This document shows positions 36,166 through 48,546 of a stretch of 64,000 nt of DNA, in pieces. The stretch spans positions 1 through 64,000 of the IMG/VR virus record IMGVR_UViG_3300010354_000046, one strand, 5' to 3'. How positions within the stretch are numbered: the first letter of the stretch is position 1; every line of letters begins with the position of its first letter. Position numbers and translations under genes: made by a program. This DNA is from a virus. Under the pieces are notes generated by a model, which ran no database searches, was not told where the DNA came from, and was given only the letters and a program-made list of their open reading frames with translations.

Positions 36166-36567
36166 GAGACCCCGCTGTGACTACTAGCACTATACACTAG
36201 TTAGATACTGATCATACTTGAGTAAAAGCCAAGTAACAGCTGAACTGGGTTCACAATCAATACGCCAAATCCAATAGTGATTGTCCACTACTATATAACG
36301 CCCACAGCTCATAGTAATTGAGTGCTGTTGACAATATAGATAGATCTCATCCATGGACGGATCATCTGATTCCAAAGTAACTACTAGTCTCATAGTATAG
36401 TTATTTACTGCCATGTGCTGCTATTGGAGCGACTAGAAACAACTACTGAGATTGCTTGCAAGCAATCAACTATATGTGTGTGACTTTTATATAGTATACA
36501 GAGACCCCGCTGTGCAGGTCTAGCAGTTTGAGCATATTAGTACGTATATAGGGGAGGCCCCGCTGTG
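36166..36567 (+). repeat. Dispersed GAG(A/G)CCCCGCTGTG repeat, 3 copies
   Basis: Copies at about 36166, 36501 and 36554. Confidence 0.85.
36190..36393 (-). CDS. Hypothetical protein (W-L-L-L-K-Y family variant)
   Basis: Start MRLVVTLES after TAAATA (36402). Confidence 0.55.
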   Translation of the reverse strand: MRLVVTLESDDPSMDEIYLYCQQHSITMSCGRYIVVDNHYWIWRIDCEPSSAVTWLLLKYDQYLTSV

Positions 36568-36615
36568 GGCAACCAGGGTTCGGGCACAATGCGTGGAGAT
36601 TGGAGTAGGATAGCG

Positions 36616-36800
36616 GAATTGTAGAGAATTGTAGAGAAATGTGGGAGAAGTGGGAGTAACCATTTTAACTATGCCCATTTTGACCTCGACTCTGCTATTC
36701 TAGGACCACCGTGCCTGGGCACCGTGCGGCCTGATTGTGGCTCACAACCTAGAAACCGTCACACAATTTCACACTTTTTCACACTTTTCAGCACTTTTGT
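36616..36800. repeat. Two inverted arrays of phased 10-bp repeats
   Basis: GAATTGTAGA-type x4 (36616-36655) facing ACAC(A/T)(A/T)TTTC-type x4 (36761-36800). Confidence 0.75.
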
Positions 36801-36952
36801 CAGATCTGGCCTTGCGTGTAGACATCACTATGCATGGTGCCATGATCTAGTTTGCACTTTTCTACACTCAATACAGTATATACTCTACTACAGTAGTCAC
36901 ACGGTATCCAACTATTCTAACCACTAGATAGGCTCGAACCGTTAAATACTAT

Positions 36953-37419: not shown

Positions 37420-37505
37420 CCGAAAGCATAAAGACCCTTCGTTGTGTCGGGGTTCTTGACATTTTGGGCCGTTTACAGTATAATAGCATTTTAAGGGAGC
37501 ACAAT

Positions 37506-37634
37506 ATGTCAGAAGCAAAAGCCGCATTGTATGCAAAGCTCGCAAGTTTGCAAGCACTAACAGACTTAGACGACGACCTCATGCAAGACGCTATTAGTGC
37601 GCTCGCACAAGCCATAGAAGACCATGTAGCGTAA
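37506..37634 (+). CDS. Small hypothetical protein
   Basis: MSEAKAALYAKL..., GGGAGC RBS. Confidence 0.65.
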   Translation: MSEAKAALYAKLASLQALTDLDDDLMQDAISALAQAIEDHVA

Positions 37635-37728
37635 ACGCAACGGTCGAGTGCGGCCAAAGACCCTTCGGTTGACTGGGTCTTTGTTTTGTGCTATAATATA
37701 TGCATAAGTTAAGGAATTGGAGCGAACA

Positions 37729-38055
37729 ATGGCCCGTAACCGCAAGATCCGTAGTGATTGCAATTATATCATCTATGAGGCAGTATCTGCTACGGGTGAA
37801 AACTACATTGGCTTGACACGTAAGTCCGAGTCCACTGTCCGCAAGTCGGTGCTAGAGCGTTGGCGTAAGCATCGGAGCCGTGCTCGTAACGAGAACCGCT
37901 TGTGGGCCCTGTATGTCTACTTGAAGACTGGCGGCTTGGACCTCGCTTGGGAACATCGCGTTCTAGAGATCGTACGTGGCCGCCGGGAAGCCTACGCCCG
38001 TGAACGTGAGATTGTCAAGGCTTTGGCACCATCGCTGAACGATCAGTACCTATAA
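37729..38055 (+). CDS. GIY-YIG-like domain protein
   Basis: YIIY...NYIGLT...RW..H...E...LN. Confidence 0.75.
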   Translation: MARNRKIRSDCNYIIYEAVSATGENYIGLTRKSESTVRKSVLERWRKHRSRARNENRLWALYVYLKTGGLDLAWEHRVLEIVRGRREAYAREREIVKALAPSLNDQYL

Positions 38056-38124
38056 CCTTTCGGTTGACATGGGTACTGATTCCTGCTATAATTAAGGCTA
38101 CAGTAAACGAACAAGGAGCGAAAC

Positions 38125-38850
38125 ATGTTCAAATTGCTTTCCACAGCTAATCCCAAAATCCAAAAGGGCACGGCTCACGGCTATCTGTCGTTCATCCTGC
38201 ATCTTGCACCTGCTGACTTGTCGGGCAAGGAAGTCTGCCCTAAGCGGACCAAGGGTTGCACGGACGCCTGCTTGAATACGGCAGGGCGTGGCGGTATGTT
38301 CAAACGTGGTGAAACTACCAACGTGATCCAAAAGGCACGTATTCGCAAGACCCGTTACTTCTTTGAGAACCGTGACGCTTTCATGGCAGATTTGGTTGAG
38401 GACATCATGCGGGCTGTGAACTTTGCACGCCGCAAGGGTTTGACGCCCGTGTTCCGCTTAAATGGTACATCGGACTTGAGCTGGGAGAAGTACCCAGTTC
38501 CCAACCATGGCAAGAACATCTTTGACGCTTTCAGTACACTACAGTTCTACGACTACACCAAGGTCCTGGGCCGTAAGACAAAGGACATCCCCAACTACCA
38601 CTTGACATTCAGTGCCGCAGAGGACAATCAAGAGGATGTGGTTAACGCTATGATCCAGGGCATGAATGTTGCAATGGTATTTGATCGGCTCCCAGAGACT
38701 TACATGGGCAAGCCCGTGTTCAATGCAGATGAAACGGATCTGCGCTTTTTGGATCCCAAAGGTGTTATACTTGGGCTCAAAGCCAAGGGTCGTGCTAAGA
38801 AGGACACTTCGGGCTTCGTGCGCCGTGTGATTGACATCAAGCCCGTTTGA
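38125..38850 (+). CDS. Gp88-like phage protein (Cys-cluster)
   Basis: VCP.RTKGC...CLNTAGRG, FRLNGTSD, FYDYTK. Confidence 0.7.
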   Translation: MFKLLSTANPKIQKGTAHGYLSFILHLAPADLSGKEVCPKRTKGCTDACLNTAGRGGMFKRGETTNVIQKARIRKTRYFFENRDAFMADLVEDIMRAVNFARRKGLTPVFRLNGTSDLSWEKYPVPNHGKNIFDAFSTLQFYDYTKVLGRKTKDIPNYHLTFSAAEDNQEDVVNAMIQGMNVAMVFDRLPETYMGKPVFNADETDLRFLDPKGVILGLKAKGRAKKDTSGFVRRVIDIKPV

Positions 38851-38883
38851 TGCTATACTATAGGCTACAGTAAAGGAGCGACA

Positions 38884-39165
38884 ATGAAACAAGACTATAC
38901 CATGTATATCTACAAGACAGATCGTCGTAAAAAGAGCGGCGAGCGTCTTGTCAGCACTACCGTTTGGCGCGATCGTGACCCGGACAGCATGCGTCGCGAG
39001 TGCAACGAACTCTATGATCTGTACCCTGCGACCAAAGGCTACCGGTTTGAGTACGTGCCTACAATGAAGACGGTCAAGAACTTGATGACAGGTCAAGACA
39101 TTCAGATCCCGCATGATACACCTAGATCGTGCGACCCTAGTTCAGAACTCTATTGGAGCATGTGA
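38884..39165 (+). CDS. Hypothetical protein
   Basis: Ends TPRSCDPSSELYWSM. Confidence 0.75.
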   Translation: MKQDYTMYIYKTDRRKKSGERLVSTTVWRDRDPDSMRRECNELYDLYPATKGYRFEYVPTMKTVKNLMTGQDIQIPHDTPRSCDPSSELYWSM

Positions 39166-39257
39166 TGTGGGAGTTTATTCGATTTTTACAGGTAACCGCC
39201 ATAGTGGCGCTGGGATGGATCATTGCTCTTGTAGCATATCTCCTTAGCCTGTTGTAA
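39165..39257 (+). CDS. Small membrane peptide
   Basis: MWEFIRFLQVTAIVALGWIIALVAYLLSLL. Confidence 0.45.
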   Translation: MWEFIRFLQVTAIVALGWIIALVAYLLSLL

Positions 39258-39303
39258 TAACCTTTCGGTTGACAGGGTTATTGAAAGATGCTATACTATA
39301 GGC

Positions 39304-39410
39304 TAAGTTAAAGAAGCAAGGCGATCCTCAAATGCAAGGACCCACGCGAAAGCAAAAAGGGTCGTAGCCAAGGGATACGAAGCGAGTTTGGAGACTCGGC
39401 CTAAGCAAAC
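39304..39410 (+). ncRNA. Candidate structured leader RNA/ncRNA
   Basis: About 120-nt leader with nested stems and a GAAA tetraloop, unlike the ~25-nt leaders of the other cassettes. Confidence 0.5.
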
Positions 39411-39426
39411 CAAACTAGGAGCAATC

Positions 39427-39702
39427 ATGGACGTCAAGCAAATCAATCAAGCCATCATGTTCGGTACTTGGACTGATGTAGAGATCTCTAGCATGATCGA
39501 CGCTATCAAGTGGGCTCGCGCCAGTATGGCCAAACGTGTCAAGGCCAGCATGGCACTGGGCGATCCTGTCAAGTTCACTAGCCAAAAGACCGGCATGACC
39601 TATGTGGGCAAGGTAGAGAAGATCGCTGTCAAATACGTGACAGTCAACACGGGTGCAGGTCGCTGGAAGGTGCCCGCTAATATGCTACAGCCTGTGGCAT
39701 AA
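39427..39702 (+). CDS. Hypothetical protein with SH3/KOW-like C-terminus
   Basis: GDPVKF...GKVEKIAVKYVTV...WKVPANML. Confidence 0.7.
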   Translation: MDVKQINQAIMFGTWTDVEISSMIDAIKWARASMAKRVKASMALGDPVKFTSQKTGMTYVGKVEKIAVKYVTVNTGAGRWKVPANMLQPVA

Positions 39703-39786
39703 ACGCAACACAACCAAAGACCCTTTGGTTGACTGGGTCTTTGGTTTGTGCTATAATACGTGTATTGTAAAACAAAGGAGCGAACT

Positions 39787-40020
39787 ATGTTACACAATAC
39801 ACTAGCAAAAGCCCGTTTACAGTTTAATAAAAAACTGGAGATGTATAAACTAATCTGTGCATTTAATGTAACAGAGACAAACAAAAAGGGTCAATTAAAA
39901 TTCCCTGTAGAGAAAAAGTGCAATTATGTCTCGGGACATATAGAACTCTCAGAGCTGCCGCGTGTGCTAGACACAGCAAAAAAGGTCTTGCGTACAAACA
40001 ACATCGTAATCGTAGAATAA
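39787..40020 (+). CDS. Hypothetical protein
   Basis: MLHNTLAKARL..., GGAGCGAA RBS. Confidence 0.7.
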   Translation: MLHNTLAKARLQFNKKLEMYKLICAFNVTETNKKGQLKFPVEKKCNYVSGHIELSELPRVLDTAKKVLRTNNIVIVE

Positions 40021-40030
40021 GGAGCAAACA

Positions 40031-40378
40031 ATGCAAACAGTAAAATTTAACGTTGGGGGCGACGGCCTGTGGTCTAAGGTAAAAGGCTCAGTAGAGATTA
40101 CGGACATGCGTCTGGGCTATGTAGACGAATATAGGGACTTTGGAGAGCTGTGCGTGTACTTTAACACCGAACATTGGGACGTTAACGTTGACGGCTTAAT
40201 TTATACAGACAAGACCTTTAGGCAAGACTTGATACAGTTTTGCAAAGAGCATGGACTTGTGGTAGACCTGTGCTACAGCGAGCAGGGTATGCAGGGAGAC
40301 GACTATGTTAGCTTTGACGTGGGTAGGGACTTTATTGCCAGCTGGGACGCTAAGTTTGGAGTCCCCATTGCTGAATAA
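40031..40378 (+). CDS. Hypothetical protein
   Basis: GLIYTD, YSEQGMQG motifs. Confidence 0.75.
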   Translation: MQTVKFNVGGDGLWSKVKGSVEITDMRLGYVDEYRDFGELCVYFNTEHWDVNVDGLIYTDKTFRQDLIQFCKEHGLVVDLCYSEQGMQGDDYVSFDVGRDFIASWDAKFGVPIAE

Positions 40379-40592
40379 TATTTTACAGTGGGCGGGCACA
40401 GCCTGCCTGCTTACCATGTACGTATTAATGTCGTTCTTCCCGAACCTACATCCTTGGAACATTGTCTGCGGAGTACTAGGCGGAGCATGCTATCTAGCAT
40501 GGACTATCCGTGTTGCAAATAAGCCACAGATGCTGGTCAATGCTGTAGCAATAACCATAGGCGCTGTAGGGTTATATCGGGCATGGGCTTGA
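40368..40592 (+). CDS. Small three-TM membrane protein
   Basis: ILQWAGTACLL...PWNIV... Confidence 0.6.
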   Translation: MLNNILQWAGTACLLTMYVLMSFFPNLHPWNIVCGVLGGACYLAWTIRVANKPQMLVNAVAITIGAVGLYRAWA

Positions 40593-40646
40593 CACAGCAG
40601 CCAAAAGGCGCTATAATTAAGGCATAGTAAACAAAAGGAGCGAGCG

Positions 40647-40997
40647 ATGAGTATTACTATTTCTGGCATTGATTTTGTCAAGCCTGGCGAACTGCTCTAC
40701 TCTAATCCCCGTGCTATTGACATTCTCGTGCGTGAGATTGTGTCTAGCATGGCTGAGAGTAGCATTGACCTGATCTGCGATGCTGGGCCCACTGAGTACC
40801 CAAACAAGGCTAGCATTGAGGACTGCCTCACTGGGTGCAGTGAAATGGGTGTGGACTTCGTTGAGGACATGATCAACGAACTGCGCGACAAATTGGTAGC
40901 ACGCCTGCAAGCCGTAAAGGTCAAGCCCGTTGTCAAGGAAATCCACTTCGATGAGAAGGGTTATTCCGATGTCGTGGTTGACATTGAGCTCGTTTGA
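40647..40997 (+). CDS. Hypothetical protein
   Basis: 116 aa cassette gene. Confidence 0.75.
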   Translation: MSITISGIDFVKPGELLYSNPRAIDILVREIVSSMAESSIDLICDAGPTEYPNKASIEDCLTGCSEMGVDFVEDMINELRDKLVARLQAVKVKPVVKEIHFDEKGYSDVVVDIELV

Positions 40998-41035
40998 GCT
41001 TATAATAGAGTTATTGTTTAACAAAGGAGCGAACT

Positions 41036-41305
41036 ATGTCAAACTACCCTAACATGTCCTACTGCATGTGCAACAACACTCTCATGGCCCTGCGCCAAGT
41101 AATGGACGCCATGCAAGAGGAAGGTCCTATGTTCTTGCGTGAAATCAGCAAGGACGAGTACCGCTCTTACCGGGCCCTGTTTGACGCCTGCGAGAGCTTC
41201 CTCACTCTCAGCGAAGAGCTGGAGACTATTGTAGAGGAAGAAGACTACCACGATGGACAGCCCGACGAAGCTCAGGAGTGGCATGACTTCGACCCCGACT
41301 GCTAA
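41036..41305 (+). CDS. Hypothetical protein
   Basis: NMSYCMC.NT; ends DGQPDEAQEWHDFDPDC. Confidence 0.75.
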   Translation: MSNYPNMSYCMCNNTLMALRQVMDAMQEEGPMFLREISKDEYRSYRALFDACESFLTLSEELETIVEEEDYHDGQPDEAQEWHDFDPDC

Positions 41306-41314
41306 GGAGTAGAC

Positions 41315-41545
41315 ATGATCACAGCAGACACACTCAAAGTCCTTACAGGGTTTGGGCCGCAAGGCCTTACTACATTGATTCGTCGTGCAGGCTACAAGGA
41401 GGACACCTTTACGGGTGCAAAGTTCCTGGGCTTGACTAACGGCGGACAGTTCTGCTACCTCTGCACCTACAAGGGCGAGTTCGAGGACACCTGTAAGGTT
41501 TTCCTTACAGTCAACAAGGACGGAACTGTAAGGGCAGAGTACTAA
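41315..41545 (+). CDS. Hypothetical protein
   Basis: FLGLTNGGQFCY motif. Confidence 0.75.
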   Translation: MITADTLKVLTGFGPQGLTTLIRRAGYKEDTFTGAKFLGLTNGGQFCYLCTYKGEFEDTCKVFLTVNKDGTVRAEY

Positions 41546-41615
41546 TACCCGTTCGGTTGACACGGGTATTGATTGATGTTATACTATAGGCACAGTAACA
41601 AAACAGGAGCGTGAA

Positions 41616-42071
41616 ATGGCAACTCGAAGCACTATTGCATTGGAATTCGCAGACGGTACTGTCCAGCAGGTCTACTGCCACTGGGACGGCTACATTGATC
41701 ACAACGGCAAAATTCTGTTTGAGAACTATTCGAATCCCTTTATCCTGCGCGACTTGATTGACATGGGCGACATTAGCTCGCTGGGTCCCAAAGTCGGCAC
41801 CAAGCATCCGTTTAGCCCGCATGGCGATGGCGACAAGGCTGCATACGATGCGGCACAAGAGGCAGGCTACACTACATTCTACGGACGCGACAGAGGCGAA
41901 GACGGAGTGAGTGCTAAGAAGTTCAAAGACTTCGAGGACTACAAAGCCAATCACCAATATGAGGAATATGAGTATATTCTGCGTACCGACGGGCTGTGGT
42001 ATGTGTCGCAATACGGACGCCCCTACGAGCTGCTGTCAGCAGCTCTGCAACGTCAACTGGAGGAAGCATGA
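41616..42071 (+). CDS. Hypothetical phage protein
   Basis: MATRSTI...YCHWDGY motif. Confidence 0.8.
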   Translation: MATRSTIALEFADGTVQQVYCHWDGYIDHNGKILFENYSNPFILRDLIDMGDISSLGPKVGTKHPFSPHGDGDKAAYDAAQEAGYTTFYGRDRGEDGVSAKKFKDFEDYKANHQYEEYEYILRTDGLWYVSQYGRPYELLSAALQRQLEEA

Positions 42072-42283
42072 AAACAGTCCGAGTAGAGACACTTCTAGTC
42101 CAGGAACTCGAAGTTCCTGATGACTGGGAACGAGAGCACGTCTACGACTTCCTTGGAGAGTATCAGAGCTTCCGTACTGCGTTCCAAGGTGTCAGCAACG
42201 AAGATCAAACAGCTAGGATCGTAGACCTTATGGTCCTAGAGGAAACGGTAACTGAACTAGGTGAGGAGGCCTACGATGAGTAA
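42068..42283 (+). CDS. Hypothetical protein
   Basis: MKTVRVETL, GGAGG RBS. Confidence 0.65.
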   Translation: MKTVRVETLLVQELEVPDDWEREHVYDFLGEYQSFRTAFQGVSNEDQTARIVDLMVLEETVTELGEEAYDE

Positions 42284-42452
42284 AATGAGTGAACTGGCAT
42301 ACGACATTGAGCAACTATACATTGAAGGACTCAATGTAGGGCAGATTGCCCGTGAGCTGAATTGTCCCAAAGAGATTGTTCAAGACTGGCTGGCAGATCA
42401 AAGCCTGCGAGAGTTCGAGGATCTCGACCCGTACAACACCGTCAACAGCTAA
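42276..42452 (+). CDS. Small HTH-like protein
   Basis: GLNVGQIARELNCPKEIVQDWL. Confidence 0.6.
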   Translation: MSKMSELAYDIEQLYIEGLNVGQIARELNCPKEIVQDWLADQSLREFEDLDPYNTVNS

Positions 42453-42614
42453 GTTTCGCGGGCCCTATCGCCTGGGTACTCTCTATAGGACCTGTACCCT
42501 GCAACCTGGGCCTGCCACCGCACTCGACCGTTGTATAGATGCAACAACCCTTCGATTGACTTGGGTATTGAAAGATGCTATACTATAGGCTAAGTTAAAC
42601 AAACAGGAGCAGAC

Positions 42615-42824
42615 ATGGAACTTCAACTTCAGAACCCAATGCAAGTTAAGATTGCAGATCTGCTGTGGGTAGCCCAAACCCAGCGCGAAGTCACAGCAAT
42701 CCTTAATACCTTTGGGCACGATGCTCGTGTAGTCTATGAGCTCATGGTTGCCGCTAGTTTTGACAACATCACTGATACCCAGGACGCTGATAGGGTTATT
42801 AAGCGTTTGGTTGACAAGCAGTGA
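42615..42824 (+). CDS. Hypothetical protein
   Basis: 69 aa cassette gene. Confidence 0.7.
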   Translation: MELQLQNPMQVKIADLLWVAQTQREVTAILNTFGHDARVVYELMVAASFDNITDTQDADRVIKRLVDKQ

Positions 42825-42870
42825 TTTTGGTGCTATACTATAGGCTAAGTTAAACAAACAAGGAGCGCAA

Positions 42871-43128
42871 ATGAAAGAGTTGAAAGAGTTCGTGGATCGC
42901 GAGAACAAGTGGAGTGCTATCTTTGGTAGCCCTGCACTGAGCCTGCAGAGTGCGGCAGATCGCAAGAAGATCGCTAACAAGATTGATTCCTGCCTGAGCC
43001 CAGAGAACTTGACCTGCGATGGAGAGATCAGCCATGCAGAAGCCAATCGCAAGTTCCGCTTCCTCACTAAGGCCGCAGAGCAATTGATGAAGTTGGATCC
43101 CTCTGTTGAAATTCACGAATACTACTAA
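42871..43128 (+). CDS. Hypothetical protein
   Basis: LSPENLTCDGE motif. Confidence 0.75.
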   Translation: MKELKEFVDRENKWSAIFGSPALSLQSAADRKKIANKIDSCLSPENLTCDGEISHAEANRKFRFLTKAAEQLMKLDPSVEIHEYY

Positions 43129-43137
43129 GGAGCGAAC

Positions 43138-43719
43138 ATGCCTAATTGGTGCAACAACACAGTCACCCTGCGTCACAAAGATTCTGCGATGGTCCAGCGA
43201 GCCCAAGAGGCACTGGCCAATGGCAGACTTCTGCAGGAGTTCATTCCTTGCCCACAGGACTTGATTGATACTGTAGCAGGCTTCATGGGAGAAGACAAGC
43301 GTGAAGCACACGAAGCACAGCAGAAGCGCAACATTGAGAATCACGGCTATGCCAATTGGTATGACTGGAATGTGGCCAACTGGGGAACCAAATGGGATGT
43401 AGGCGGCGATGACGGCTTGACACAGCGTCTGGATCCTAACACGCTAGAAGCAAGTTTTGACAGCGCATGGGCTCCTCCAGTTAATGCCTACGAGAAGCTC
43501 TGTGCCCTAGGCTTTGAGATTGAAGCATACTACAATGAGCCCGGCATGGCGTTCTGTGGTAAGTGGAGTGGCGACGAAGACGACTACTCGGATGACTATT
43601 ACGAATACGGTGGTGAAACCTCTGCCACTGTGCGAGAAGCAATCGGCGAAGAGCTAGATGACTTCTGGTGTATTTCAGAGGATATGGCCAACTGGGAAGA
43701 AGAAAATGCAGAAGAATAA
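43138..43719 (+). CDS. YubB/DUF1281-like ferredoxin-fold protein
   Basis: MPNWCNN, WYDWNVANWGTKWD, FDSAWAPP, YNEPGMAFCG. Confidence 0.8.
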   Translation: MPNWCNNTVTLRHKDSAMVQRAQEALANGRLLQEFIPCPQDLIDTVAGFMGEDKREAHEAQQKRNIENHGYANWYDWNVANWGTKWDVGGDDGLTQRLDPNTLEASFDSAWAPPVNAYEKLCALGFEIEAYYNEPGMAFCGKWSGDEDDYSDDYYEYGGETSATVREAIGEELDDFWCISEDMANWEEENAEE

Positions 43720-43852
43720 CAGGACTCTTAACCAAGAGCACGAACGCAGGCAAGAAGGGCGGGTGCGCCCCAAACAGCCGGAATACGATTTCAAACCCTT
43801 GGAAGAAGTTATAGCCATTTGGGTGCGGGAAAGGTTAAATACTCCAACATGA
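43706..43852 (+). CDS. Small hypothetical protein
   Basis: MQKNNRTL... Confidence 0.45.
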   Translation: MQKNNRTLNQEHERRQEGRVRPKQPEYDFKPLEEVIAIWVRERLNTPT

Positions 43853-44148
43853 GTAGACTTCAACTATATGGCAGACCTTGGGTTGTCTTTGACGCCCAGA
43901 ACAAGGACCATCGTCGTTGGTTTGCTGAATTCAACAAGAACCTTTCCTGGAAGAACTGCCCTGTGCGCTTCGTGGTAAACGAGGATCACGGTGACTTGAT
44001 TACACAAATTCAACGCTCTCTAATCCAATTTTATGTGGATAAAGAGTTTGGCACTGATGCAGACCCGCATACCCGTACCAAACCGGGTGTTGTAGGAAAA
44101 CAACAGAAAAAGGTTAACCAAAAGAAGCAAAAACCGGTTGACAATTAA
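43849..44148 (+). CDS. Hypothetical protein
   Basis: MSRLQLYGRPWVVFD, TAAATA at 43836. Confidence 0.7.
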   Translation: MSRLQLYGRPWVVFDAQNKDHRRWFAEFNKNLSWKNCPVRFVVNEDHGDLITQIQRSLIQFYVDKEFGTDADPHTRTKPGVVGKQQKKVNQKKQKPVDN

Positions 44149-44227
44149 CCAATTCGAACTTATAATTTAAACATGCTGAAGAATGGTTCTGAGGCATACT
44201 TTTTAAACACACAGAAAGAGGCACATT

Positions 44228-44581
44228 ATGGCTACTGATAAAACTTTTACCGTTGCAGGCGTTTCCAAGCACAAGGGCGAATACAAAGTTCGCTTCGCCA
44301 ATGATATCATGCGTATCAAGAATCTTGATAAGGCAGGTCACGAAGACATCCGTCTCTGTGAACTGGACAAGGCAATGACCAAGTTCGATGCCATCAAGGC
44401 TATTAGTACTATGGCTGAGTTCTCAGACGCGGCTGCACAGAGCTGCATCAGTGAGTATCTTGAGGACAAAGCTCCCAAAGCCAAAACAGCACCTGCGAAG
44501 GTCCCTGCGAAGGCTACACCTAAGGCCAAGGCTACTGCGCCCAAGGCCAAAGTTACCGAGGACGAAGACGCTCCTTTCTAA
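44228..44581 (+). CDS. Hypothetical protein with K/A/P-rich histone-like tail
   Basis: FTVAGVS...KVRFAND; tail KAPKAKTAPAKVPAKATPKAK. Confidence 0.75.
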   Translation: MATDKTFTVAGVSKHKGEYKVRFANDIMRIKNLDKAGHEDIRLCELDKAMTKFDAIKAISTMAEFSDAAAQSCISEYLEDKAPKAKTAPAKVPAKATPKAKATAPKAKVTEDEDAPF

Positions 44582-44585
44582 ACAC

Positions 44586-44607
44586 AGGGGGTGCAATGCC
44601 CCCTTTC
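44586..44607 (+). terminator. Hairpin terminator
   Basis: AGGGGGT-GCAAT-GCCCCT followed by a short T run. Confidence 0.5.
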
Positions 44608-44627
44608 CAATCTAACATATCTATATC

Positions 44628-44816
44628 ATGACCTGGGAACTCTACGAAGTTTGGGCTGTTGATTCTGACGGCCACGAGGATTTGATCGACACCACAAAAG
44701 ATCTTAAGGCAGCAAGGACCATGGCTAGAGCTAATCTAGACGATGATGTCGTTGAATGCATCATTTATCGTGAAAACGAAGACGGAGATTTGGAGATGGT
44801 AGAACGTGTTAGATAA
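44628..44816 (+). CDS. Small acidic hypothetical protein
   Basis: 62 aa. Confidence 0.65.
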   Translation: MTWELYEVWAVDSDGHEDLIDTTKDLKAARTMARANLDDDVVECIIYRENEDGDLEMVERVR

Positions 44817-44826
44817 GTAAAAAACC

Positions 44827-44905
44827 GGGCCGTTAGCTCATGCTTGGTTAGAGCAGTGGACTCATAATCCATTGGTGCTAGGTTCGACTCCTAGACGGCC
44901 CACCA
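44827..44905 (+). tRNA. tRNA with CAT anticodon (Ile2-type or Met)
   Basis: GGGCCGT/ACGGCCC acceptor, CT-CAT-AA loop, GGTTCGACTCC, CCA end. Confidence 0.92.
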
Positions 44906-44908
44906 AAT

Positions 44909-44985
44909 CTGACTGTAGCTCAACTGGATAGAGCAACAGCCTTCTAAGCTGTAGGTCGGGGGTTCGAGTCCCTCCAGTCAGGCCA
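44909..44985 (+). tRNA. tRNA-Arg(TCT)
   Basis: CTGACTG/CAGTCAG acceptor, CT-TCT-AA loop, GGTTCGAGTCC, CCA end. Confidence 0.93.
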
Positions 44986-45097
44986 TTCTGCCCCGCACTC
45001 GCCTGTTGTATAAACGCAACACCAATACCCATTCGGTTGACTTGGGTATTGAATTGTGCTATACTGTGTTCATAGTAAGCAATTAGGAGCGAACCAA

Positions 45098-45382
45098 ATG
45101 GCTAAACTGTTAATCCAAACCCAAGTTTATGAGAACTATGGCTACCGCTGGAAAGCCAAAGGAGGCGGCGACTATGTGGTTAAGAACTTTAAAGACTTCA
45201 ACCGTGTCACAGAGTTCGTCATGGCTCTCCGCAGCCAAGTCGAGCAGGACAACGAATTCTACCGCGAGCACATCATTGGTTGGGAAGTGGTTGCCGACGA
45301 CTACCTTACAGAGTTCGAGCGCGATCAGCTGGAGTACGAGGGCCAGATCCGCTACCCGGCCAACGAGCTGGTTGTAGAATAA
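45098..45382 (+). CDS. Hypothetical protein
   Basis: TQVYENYG..WKAKGG motif. Confidence 0.75.
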   Translation: MAKLLIQTQVYENYGYRWKAKGGGDYVVKNFKDFNRVTEFVMALRSQVEQDNEFYREHIIGWEVVADDYLTEFERDQLEYEGQIRYPANELVVE

Positions 45383-45389
45383 GGAGTAC

Positions 45390-45494
45390 ATGATGCTTGA
45401 AATTCTTATTGCTGTATTGGTTATTGTCATCATTGGCGTGAATATTGCAACGACTGTATCGACTAGGTTTCGCCGGTGGCTCTATAGCAAATAA
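45390..45494 (+). CDS. Small membrane peptide
   Basis: MMLEILIAVLVIVIIGVNIATTVSTRFRRWLYSK, AAGGAG RBS. Confidence 0.55.
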   Translation: MMLEILIAVLVIVIIGVNIATTVSTRFRRWLYSK

Positions 45495-45563
45495 CCTTTC
45501 GGTTGACAGGGTTACCAAAAGACGCTATAATTAAGGCTACAGTAAACAAACAAGGAGCGCAAA

Positions 45564-45803
45564 ATGGGTATGTGGACTACAGACAACCAAGATACAATGA
45601 GCCTGGTGCTCAAGGCATTCAGCGAAGCCGCTCGTGAAAACTATGGTGGTCATGCTTTTGAAGCAGGCTATCTACAGAGTGTGATAGTTAGCCTTGTGCC
45701 ACTCTTGCCCAAGCGGGCTCAGAAGGTCCTGATAGACGACATGGTTCGTGCCGCTAAGAAGCAAGAGCAAGAAGTCAGCAACAAGCAAAAGGAGACTGTA
45801 TGA
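45564..45803 (+). CDS. Hypothetical protein
   Basis: 79 aa cassette gene. Confidence 0.7.
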   Translation: MGMWTTDNQDTMSLVLKAFSEAARENYGGHAFEAGYLQSVIVSLVPLLPKRAQKVLIDDMVRAAKKQEQEVSNKQKETV

Positions 45804-46024
45804 TTAGAGAGCATATTCAGATTGATACCCGCCACGGTGGGCCTTACGATCGTGGATCGGCAGACAGCTACTACCGTCGTGGTCGTAACCCACACTTCTT
45901 CCGTGGTGACAGCTATCAATCCGAGCGTGTCACCTACAAGGACATGACTCCTGACGAGGTTGTGGCCTACAATGCAGGCTACGATGACAACGAAGAATTT
46001 GGTGACTACAAGGAGTGGTTGTGA
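45800..46024 (+). CDS. Hypothetical protein
   Basis: RHGGPYDRGSADSYY.R...PH motif. Confidence 0.75.
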   Translation: MIREHIQIDTRHGGPYDRGSADSYYRRGRNPHFFRGDSYQSERVTYKDMTPDEVVAYNAGYDDNEEFGDYKEWL

Positions 46025-46194
46025 TTTATCCCGAAGACATGACAGCTGAAGACATCATGGAGTTCGAGTACGAATGGGAACGCTACTGCGATTTGGCAGA
46101 TCCCTACAGCCTAGCCAGCATCAATGCTGAGCTTCAATGTGTTGCAGAAACACAACGCCAAAAGACCCTAGAGGTTGACGGGTCTTTCATTTGA
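46021..46194 (+). CDS. Small acidic hypothetical protein
   Basis: GTG start with AAGGAG RBS; MIYPEDMTAEDIMEFEYEW... Confidence 0.55.
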   Translation: MIYPEDMTAEDIMEFEYEWERYCDLADPYSLASINAELQCVAETQRQKTLEVDGSFI

Positions 46195-46236
46195 GTATAT
46201 AATACATACATATTAACACAACAGGGAGCGACCCAA

Positions 46237-46620
46237 ATGACTAAAGTAAACTATGACAAGTTCGCCAGCTTTGACCTGAACGAAGCCTGTGACCATTTTG
46301 ACAGCATGGACCAGCGGGCCTGGAAGAAGATTGGCAAGTTCATCGTTGCAGACGGTCAAGAGTACGTGGATGTCATGGAGAACCACTTTGACTTTGAAGA
46401 CACCGCAGAAGGCGAATACGCGGCCTTTGACGCAGGTGTCCGTTATGCACTAACTAAGATGAACACGGCCCTGGAAGCCGCAGGTATAGACGTACAGATC
46501 TGCGAAGTGGACCTTGTGGAGAGCATGGGCTTTATTATGGTCCGTTGCGATGATGAGCCCGAGGATTTTGTAAAACGAGCCCTAAAAAAGCCTGTCATGA
46601 TGGTTGACAGCTGGGTCTAA
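46237..46620 (+). CDS. Hypothetical protein
   Basis: 127 aa cassette gene. Confidence 0.75.
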   Translation: MTKVNYDKFASFDLNEACDHFDSMDQRAWKKIGKFIVADGQEYVDVMENHFDFEDTAEGEYAAFDAGVRYALTKMNTALEAAGIDVQICEVDLVESMGFIMVRCDDEPEDFVKRALKKPVMMVDSWV

Positions 46621-46664
46621 AGACTGTATAATAAACACTTCAACAACGCAAACAGGAGCGAAAC

Positions 46665-47012
46665 ATGTCTGCAAACTACACTCAAGAGCAGGTCAACGAA
46701 ATCGTACGTGAAGCACAAGAGGCAGCTCGTAAGGCTGCTCTGGACTTTTTCCAAACCCGTTTGGGCGGTCGTGACCAGTACGCCTGTGGCTTTGCCTGGG
46801 TCAACATCTACCGGGTCAAAGGCAACACCAAACTGGGCAAGATGCTCAAAGCCGCTGGTGTGCGTCAAGACTACACCAAAGCATTTCAAATTTGGAATCC
46901 CAGTGGCATGCCCGTGCAGAACGTAGACACTCTGGAAGCGGGTGCAGAAGCCGCCGCAAATGTCTTTCAAAAGTATGGCTTCGAAGCTTACGCAGGTAGC
47001 CGATTGGATTGA
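46665..47012 (+). CDS. Hypothetical protein
   Basis: ACGFAWV ... SRLD. Confidence 0.75.
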   Translation: MSANYTQEQVNEIVREAQEAARKAALDFFQTRLGGRDQYACGFAWVNIYRVKGNTKLGKMLKAAGVRQDYTKAFQIWNPSGMPVQNVDTLEAGAEAAANVFQKYGFEAYAGSRLD

Positions 47013-47068
47013 CAAAAGGGCCGCAAGGCCTTATAATAGATACTTCAACAAACAGTAAGGAGCGACAA

Positions 47069-47965
47069 ATGGGTAGACCCCTAGGCAGTAAGAACAAGGT
47101 TATGACACTGGCAGCACTCAAGCAGATTGAGTCCGACACCAAGAGCCTTGTACAGGATCCAGTTGAGAAAGACCTCAGCAAGGAAACAGACGAGCAGATT
47201 ATGGAGCGTCTGGGACAACGTTTTGAGATCCTGGAAGACATGACTCGTGCAGTCAAGAAGGGCGATGTACGTGCTATGATTGTATCGGGCCCTCCGGGTG
47301 TGGGCAAGAGCTTTGGCGTGGAGAAAGTACTAAGCAAGCACGATGTGTTCGCCGATGTTGCTGACGACAAGAAGCTGAAGAAGTACGAGATTGTCAAGGG
47401 CGCAATGAGTGCCATTGGCTTGTACTCAAAGCTCTATGAGTTCTCGGACAAGAAGTCAATCCTTGTGTTTGACGACTGTGACAGCGTATTGCTGGACGAC
47501 TTGAGCTTGAACATTCTCAAGGCAGCTCTGGACAGCAGTAAGAAGCGTACCATCCATTGGAACACTGACAGCAGGCTCCTGCGCTCAGAAGGTGTGCCCA
47601 ACAGCTTTGAGTTCAAGGGCGGTGCTATCTTTATTACCAATATCAAGTTCGACAACGTGCGCTCAAAGAAGCTGCGCGATCACTTGGAAGCATTGGAAAG
47701 CCGTTGCCACTACTTGGACTTGACTATTGACACAGAGCGTGAGAAGCTTCTACGCATCCGTCAGGTTGTACGTGATGCAGGCATGCTGGATGACTACGAG
47801 CTTAGTGATACAGCTAAGGCTGAAGTGGTAGACTTCATTGCAGACAATAGTAAGCGTATGCGTGAGCTGAGCTTGCGTATGGTGCTTAAGGTAGCAGACA
47901 TACGCCGTAGCATGCCCAACAACTGGCGTGCTGTAGTAGAGGTTACCTGTATGCGTAACCGTTAA
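47069..47965 (+). CDS. AAA+ ATPase
   Basis: Walker A GPPGVGKS, Walker B LVFDDCD, ITN sensor, ALESR. Confidence 0.9.
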   Translation: MGRPLGSKNKVMTLAALKQIESDTKSLVQDPVEKDLSKETDEQIMERLGQRFEILEDMTRAVKKGDVRAMIVSGPPGVGKSFGVEKVLSKHDVFADVADDKKLKKYEIVKGAMSAIGLYSKLYEFSDKKSILVFDDCDSVLLDDLSLNILKAALDSSKKRTIHWNTDSRLLRSEGVPNSFEFKGGAIFITNIKFDNVRSKKLRDHLEALESRCHYLDLTIDTEREKLLRIRQVVRDAGMLDDYELSDTAKAEVVDFIADNSKRMRELSLRMVLKVADIRRSMPNNWRAVVEVTCMRNR

Positions 47966-48101
47966 GAGTAAGCGGCCCGAGAGCCGCACTGGACCAGCCA
48001 ACGATTCGCTCCCGGTAACTGGTCCCCAAAAGGTCCCATAAGTCCGATTCGCTCCCGGCAAGACCTTTTTCAAATCCCCGACTGGTTCGGGGATTTTTTT
48101 T
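47966..48101 (+). ncRNA. Candidate 3'-UTR sRNA with two anti-RBS loops (AUUCGCUCC)
   Basis: CGATTCGCTCCCGG repeated at 48002 and 48045, each in the apex of a hairpin, followed by an intrinsic terminator. Confidence 0.7.
48072..48101 (+). terminator. Strong intrinsic terminator closing the early island
   Basis: AAATCCCCGA-CTGGT-TCGGGGATTT plus T-run. Confidence 0.9.
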
Positions 48102-48278
48102 GATTGATGTGGAGGGGGGCCGGCATGTATTTTTATAAATTGTTGTTTTTACGCAACAGCGCATGCAAAATTCACCCATAGGTGTAAAATCACCACCCCG
48201 AATCTATAAGTACTTTTATTTTAAATTTTTCGCAGCCACGTTTTTTTACCCTGTAGACCCTCGCCGCATATATACAGT

Positions 48279-48455
48279 ATGAATGAACTGTATACGCAAA
48301 CTGAACAGATCCGTGGACGCTGGTATCGCTATGATCCGGACCGTGATATATGGTATCCCATAGACAATCAGGACTCAGCCGTAAGTGCTTGGGCATGGGT
48401 CATTGTTGTGGCATTTTTAGCGGCTCTAGCTTACTATGCTGAATACTTACGCTAA
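48279..48455 (+). CDS. Small membrane protein
   Basis: Manual translation MNELYTQ...WYRYDPDRDIW...AWVIVVAFLAALAYY. Confidence 0.55.
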   Translation: MNELYTQTEQIRGRWYRYDPDRDIWYPIDNQDSAVSAWAWVIVVAFLAALAYYAEYLR

Positions 48456-48546
48456 AACTGACCCCACCAGAACTCTAAGTACTTCTCCCAAATTTTTTGC
48501 GTACAGTTTTTTTTGGTGCTAGGACCCATTTCAACACTATAAATAT

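Follow-up and report, generated by a model that had tools for sequence, protein, structure and literature searches.

The ATPase gene that closes an early gene island of this phage is followed by what is, judging from its sequence, a real element of RNA control by base pairing: hairpins whose open loops are complementary to a tag, GGAGCG, built into the ribosome-binding sites (RBSs) of the island. Loop and tag change together in relatives and therefore very probably base-pair to control protein synthesis, and we hold with high confidence that this pairing is functional. The window, that is, the whole 64,000-nt stretch of DNA that was analysed, belongs to a contig rated 38% complete, a genome fragment of a large uncultured aquatic phage with relatives of up to 360 kb.

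The element (47966-48101, plus strand) lies 3' of the ATPase stop codon (47963-47965) and has the anatomy given in the preliminary description: a small 5' hairpin at 47972-47987, a predicted fold whose sequence is not conserved in relatives; a first seed hairpin at 47991-48025, with a 7-bp outer stem and an open 9-nt loop AUUCGCUCC at 48004-48012; a second at 48028-48069, with an 8-bp outer stem, a CCG/CGG upper stem and the same loop AUUCGCUCC at 48047-48055; and an intrinsic terminator with its U-tract at 48072-48101. The identical 14-mer that had been noticed in both apices is present at 48002 and 48045, against 0.09 copies expected by chance even with 2 mismatches allowed. Folding predicts that both 9-nt loops are open, at a cost of 0.1 kcal/mol for 48004-48012 and 0.6 kcal/mol for 48047-48055 (folding z-score of the element, -2.1), and neither the window nor six homologous loci matched any Rfam family, whether by gathering threshold or by E-value. 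The preceding gene (47069-47965, plus) encodes a 298-aa AAA-type ATPase (phrog_1250), a homologue of T4 NrdC.10 for which no relative of solved structure was found, and its mRNA ends in the element. No promoter of the element's own was found; the nearest source of transcription is the sigma70 promoter of the ATPase gene with its tagged RBS at 47059 (47009-47071, plus), and the promoters at 46175, 46604 and 47009 should all transcribe the element.

The window has 15 GGAGCG sites followed by an ATG where 1.5 would be expected, and 14 of these sites fall in the island, confirming that this RBS precedes 14 of its genes, the ATPase gene included. All on the plus strand, they lie at 37719, 38115, 38875, 39777, 40637, 41026, 41606, 42862, 43129, 45086, 45554, 46225, 46655 and 47059. 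Seventeen near-consensus sigma70 cassettes (37456-47037, plus), in many of which the -35 box is enclosed by a PeSL-like hairpin, precede small, mostly unknown genes, the NrdC.10-type ATPase being the end of the island. The tag follows these promoters: 13 of the 14 tagged island RBSs (13 of 15 across the window) belong to first cistrons, and 69% of promoter-proximal cistrons carry it versus 12% of internal ones. The preliminary description had proposed a phage regulon of the island read by a 3'-UTR RNA; a plus-strand RNA with loops that pair with a private tag, and covary with it, agrees with this proposal, but its scope is promoter-proximal cistrons with few internal ones, not all island genes. 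The complementarity also had to be shortened. The full 9-mer GGAGCGAAT occurs nowhere on the plus strand of the window, hence at no island RBS, and the 14 island RBSs match the loop over 8 nt (seven sites), 7 nt (four sites, among them that of the ATPase gene) or 6 nt (three sites), one of the 7-nt matches reaching 8 with a G-U pair. Binding of the seed at -10 kcal/mol or better is predicted at 11 of 22 called island starts versus 1 of 155 starts elsewhere on the 141.6-kb contig, on gene calls that are crude; the seed-RBS duplexes are worth -10 to -13 kcal/mol, compared with about -7 to -8 kcal/mol for the 16S tail on most tagged sites. A variant anti-Shine-Dalgarno (anti-SD) sequence of the host was considered as the cause of the tag and rejected, since ordinary SD sequences serve the other genes of the contig and some seeds of relatives pair with sequence upstream of the SD itself.

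In close relatives we found 108 distinct elements following the ATPase gene, each presenting 1-3 copies of the loop on stems that are variable or unrelated. The loop and its G-C closing pair are conserved, the last seed is at most 30 nt from the U-tract in 98 of the 108, and in most relatives the last seed hairpin doubles as the terminator stem. Over the 108 elements the seed has an unpaired probability of 0.84 versus 0.43 overall, and upper-stem pairs swap among C-G, U-A and G-C while remaining paired. The lower stems cannot be aligned, so RNAalifold on a MAFFT alignment returned three invariant closing pairs only, without covariation, and support for the stems therefore comes from direct pair counts. 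These counts also inform on the strand: across distinct stem contexts G-U outnumbers A-C by 23:3 (p=9e-5; marine hairpins alone, 12:10), and a sigma70 promoter on the minus strand downstream of the element is present at 1 of 99 loci, so that the RNA is, by our reading, transcribed from the plus strand, on which U-tract and stem G-U pairs agree. The opposite reading, raised in the preliminary description, would make the element a minus-strand decoy that mimics the RBS and sponges a repressor protein, similar to CsrB/RsmZ, or a minus-strand mini-gene. Read from the minus strand, the hairpin loops do contain GGA, and an ATG at 48039 opens a 25-codon frame; yet the G-U bias, the plus-strand U-tracts and the near absence of minus-strand promoters all oppose a decoy, the marine tag lacks GGA, the ATG is found in just 23 of 164 hairpins and the mini-gene is not conserved, making this reading extremely unlikely. 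Unlike CsrB/RsmZ, the strand that we take to be transcribed displays the complement of GGA in its loops.

The hairpin is not tied to the ATPase gene. A motif search made independently of the ATPase recovered it between the stop codon and the terminator of several unrelated early genes, with at least 2 tagged RBSs upstream in 57 of 89 such matches versus 1 of 87 chance matches in bacteria; the matches in bacterial genomes are scattered, behave as chance and were discarded. Where a tagged relative has no loop after its ATPase gene, a seed is in most cases present at another terminator of the island. Among cultured phages that bear the ATPase, PA5oct (49%), DLP_6 and RcRudolph have no tagged island or seed hairpin beside it, and at locus L244, where tags are weak, no seed was found.

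RBS motif and loop seed co-vary in relatives, a check that the preliminary description had suggested. Loops of a marine sister clade read UGCCCUC and its tags GAGGGCA, on up to 13 starts per genome; 52 freshwater representatives combine the window's loop with the window's tag, 13 marine representatives combine the UGCCCUC loop with the GAGGGCA tag, and mixed loci number zero. The switch between these two large clades is a single evolutionary event, on a comparison tree that is a quick version only. A further signal comes from ATPase genes taken one by one: the leader matches its own trailer over at least 8 bp in 17 of 54 ATPase lineages, against 4.0 expected (permutation test, p<1e-4; p about 0.001 when restricted to 11 deeper lineages), the feature not being present in every ATPase lineage. 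Such matches span 9 nt in L247, 10 nt in L260-L267, 10-12 nt in L352, L371, L382 and L388 and 13 nt in L128; and L277, L273 and L283 have A-U, G-U and G-C, respectively, at one position of the pairing, a series expected from RNA-RNA pairing of two sense strands. Other arrangements accompany this gene. In L128, L131, L137 and L297, the seed is located at the operon end and pairs just upstream of the SD (over up to 13 nt), changing together with the ATPase leader in L137. A different conserved hairpin, with loop UGUCAAUA, follows the ATPase stop in L353, L361, L375, L378 and others, and at some of these loci the loop is complementary to a UAUUGACA stretch in the ATPase leader.

Some motif matches on the opposite strand are the RBSs of genes behind a TAAATA late-type promoter. 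In relatives with the element, distant envelope genes of this type bear 12-17 nt complements of loop plus stem, in the leaders of csgF (Pfam), of a downstream gene of the same cluster, of a 93-aa membrane protein and of a secreted protein. Two genomes with unusual hairpin flanks, G011 and G004, have late-type leaders that match their own hairpin over 17 nt, but the elements of other genomes over at most 10 and 13 nt; a G013 leader matches its own element over 14 nt and others over at most 13, the csgF leader of G001 has 14 nt at home and 16 nt elsewhere, and one G011 leader is also slightly better elsewhere. The csgF leaders of genomes without the window's loop lack the tag, and the membrane-protein leader of G044 matches the pyrimidine loop of its own clade over 10 nt. 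TAAATA with the tag occurs in 10 of 26 genomes of clades with this loop, some of these being early cassettes, versus 0 of 16 others. Distances of tens to hundreds of kb, and often a change of strand, separate the complement-bearing late genes from the element, and pairing would therefore be in trans, to which the 17-nt genome-specific matches also point. On the window's contig, 38% complete, long complements at late genes are lacking, and so are csgF and the small membrane gene themselves; its sole start outside the island with an 8-nt loop match, which overlaps the start codon, is that of a 1348-aa baseplate-wedge-like gene behind TAAATA (G000:C1:123710; L160:1668-5711, minus), and the tag on the baseplate-like structural gene occurs sporadically (in 7 of 14 and in 2 of 5 genomes) and counts as weak. 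Separately, at L421:2528, L491:2171 and L495:5675 the RBS of endonuclease VII-like genes (a Pfam match for L421, a 29-kb phage record) is a full 15-nt complement of the hairpin top.

Could the action be mainly in cis? The 3' loops of an early mRNA would then fold onto its own 5' RBS once transcription ends, an icaR-like closed loop that would restrict translation to the co-transcriptional window. Many distant lineages have the ATPase's own leader as the sole match seen, which fits 5'-3' pairing within one mRNA too; upon gene insertion the seed moves to the operon end (for example 1.1-1.5 kb downstream in the CCACGC clade); the tag sits on promoter-proximal cistrons; and a simple scan found no clear plus-strand terminator inside the island. 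However, the long complements at late genes are out of reach of a closed loop, tagged cassettes also occur downstream of the element's terminator, and the hairpins around the -35 boxes are possibly partial terminators of upstream transcripts, which makes read-through from the far island promoters uncertain. A mainly cis mode, and with it the restriction to a co-transcriptional window, is thus unlikely, but cis action may coexist with trans action. Self-regulation of the ATPase mRNA may be the ancestral state, as the one-to-one lineages suggest, with a later spread of the tag on promoter cassettes. The -35 boxes concerned (37655-46200) sit in PeSL-like hairpin loops of -10 to -23 kcal/mol with variable arms.

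That spread raises a different objection, namely that the complementarity is a by-product of recombining promoter-RBS cassettes, the hairpin and the late leaders being DNA copies or inversions that never pair as RNA. The cassettes look PeSL-like, and PeSLs include the SD (PMC4122927); most tags belong to first cistrons, and the hairpin top recurs in some late leaders as an exact inverted copy. Cassette shuffling could account for the spread of the tag, but not for the retention of a complementary loop, which is invariant on freely varying stems that still pair; the complementarity moreover recurs with different sequences in many lineages, G-U intermediates included, and is strictly oriented, so that we give this explanation a very slim chance.

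From the pairing we infer the following course of events. Early transcripts would end in a structured 3' module that shows an open anti-RBS seed twice, and the seed would pair with the phage-private tag built into the SD region, beat the 16S tail there and lower translation initiation. The module would act in trans, whether still attached to early mRNAs as their 3' end or as a stable product of their decay about 130 nt long, with possible additional action in cis on the ATPase mRNA. Accumulating along with early transcription, the RNA would damp the first cistrons behind strong early promoters, its own gene included, a negative feedback over 6-8 bp. In relatives it would also bind a few late envelope genes (csgF, the small membrane protein, secreted proteins) over 12-17 bp, unzipping the hairpin, and keep these genes down until it is titrated by late mRNA. 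Pairing over an SD represses by default, as anti-SD pairing in icaR illustrates (PMC3868564), and repression of tagged RBSs with a component in trans is the outcome we consider probable. A strict early-to-middle timer, the function first proposed, is more doubtful, being partly supported because the tagged sites include some late envelope genes; the longest complements in relatives sit on these late-type (TAAATA) genes and not on early genes, and a repressor that binds late mRNAs most tightly needs an extra assumption, either titration or decay.

This last point invites the thought that pairing is positive, the loop serving with a phage or host protein as a trans anti-SD or guide that recruits ribosomes or protects the 5' ends of tagged mRNAs. 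The 16S 3' tail reads GAUCACCUCC, and the loop plus its closing G (GAUUCGCUCC) is in register with it; the tagged genes are those behind the strongest promoters, and the late genes whose complements are long would benefit from the pairing instead of being held back. Against this, the duplex covers the SD core, which 12-17-bp duplexes would bury, and several lineages pair upstream of the SD, out of 16S register. We know of no precedent for positive anti-SD guide pairing and consider it quite unlikely. A wider version, in which the hairpin is a re-addressable guide that sorts tagged mRNAs for translation or disposal with a protein partner, perhaps the co-transcribed NrdC.10-type ATPase or a host factor, is very unlikely in our estimate; if true, it would go beyond simple antisense blocking and constitute a natural orthogonal translation channel.

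The proposed repression by a seed held in a loop has parallels. The phage RNAs P1 C4 and P4 CI present short seeds in single-stranded regions, as immunity RNAs of temperate phages that act on one operon; the present element has no match to C4-type covariance models (Rfam). The cuckoo/CcsR RNAs of Alphaproteobacteria (RSs0680, alpha-r14) consist of 2-4 adjacent hairpins with variable stems and an invariant anti-SD-like loop, and CcsR1-4 are cut by RNase E out of the upstream gene's 3' UTR (PMC4615179, PMC8034643). Two seed hairpins here, and 1-3 in the 108 relatives, share the variable stems and the repeated loop motif, and the 3'-UTR position would fit an RNase E-type release. However, the cuckoo loop is a generic CCUCCUCCC of bacterial genomes, whereas the phage loop AUUCGCUCC, again with no Rfam match, reads a private tag that changes with it between lineages; the element thus appears to work like these RNAs, yet is not one. 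A distant homologue, L243, contains the exact cuckoo motif CCUCCUCCC. In L243 and L260-L287 the ATPase stop is followed by large pyrimidine loops built from CUC repeats, which may have converged on cuckoo RNAs. The icaR mRNA of Staphylococcus aureus has a motif in its 3' UTR that pairs with its own SD, blocks initiation at the step of 30S loading and creates a substrate for RNase III (PMC3868564); the ATPase mRNA has this 5'-3' geometry, with 7 bp at its own RBS and significance across the 54 lineages, but icaR is one mRNA while the phage seeds address 14 leaders plus distant genes in relatives. The T4 endoribonuclease RegB shuts down early mRNAs, among them its own, by way of the sequence around GGAG in their SD regions (PMC3014915). 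RegB differs in being a protein nuclease with the consensus GGAGRAYARAA, from which the phage tag departs by a C at position 5 (75% of clade leaders) and by having an RNA partner; RegA, RegB, bS21 and CsrA gave no match on the 38%-complete contig, the search control for RegB likewise giving no signal. Finally, the start-associated sequence (SAS) of Cluster K mycobacteriophages, a phage-specific repeat that is not palindromic, marks the RBSs of many non-structural genes; it has conserved bases that cannot pair with 16S, and its partner was not identified in that study (PMC3203893). The GGAGCG tag is similarly an oriented, non-palindromic repeat a few bases before the start codons of non-structural genes, but it differs from the 13-bp SAS consensus in sequence and host group, and it has a covarying RNA partner.

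To our knowledge, how lytic phages tone down the output of their very strong early promoters is known for few phages. T4 tunes its early output with the proteins RegB and RegA. Our results suggest that a large group of uncultured jumbo phages from aquatic habitats solves this with RNA, combining a private RBS address with a reader that co-evolves with it, is placed where early mRNAs end (3') and would also reach some late envelope genes. The available part of a 2025 review of phage sRNAs contains no such system (PMC12197685), and we found no description in the literature, bearing in mind that the element could be an unnamed entry among 10,000 viral candidate RNAs (PMC10690425). For the start-associated tags of phages, a puzzle since 2011, it provides a testable model, and it supplies seed/RBS pairs in natural sets that could be used in E. 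coli reporters without the host.

The island and its borders have other distinctive features. A palindrome, TGTTG-N8-CAACA, is a candidate operator, with seven copies in or just past the island (37625, 39693, 42529, 44088, 45004, 46140 and 48141) and three looser copies elsewhere. A long structured leader at 39300-39426, with no Rfam match at gathering level, precedes an untagged (GGAGCA) gene, and a related leader that contains CCACGC is present in L010 and L078. The flanks of the island are non-coding and repeat-rich (36415-36950 and 48110-48500), the right one with G-rich and A/T-tract blocks kept in relatives, making it a candidate origin or packaging site. Two tRNA genes lie within the island (44827-44982), and in the marine loci L115 and L119 the seed loops come after a tRNA of the island.
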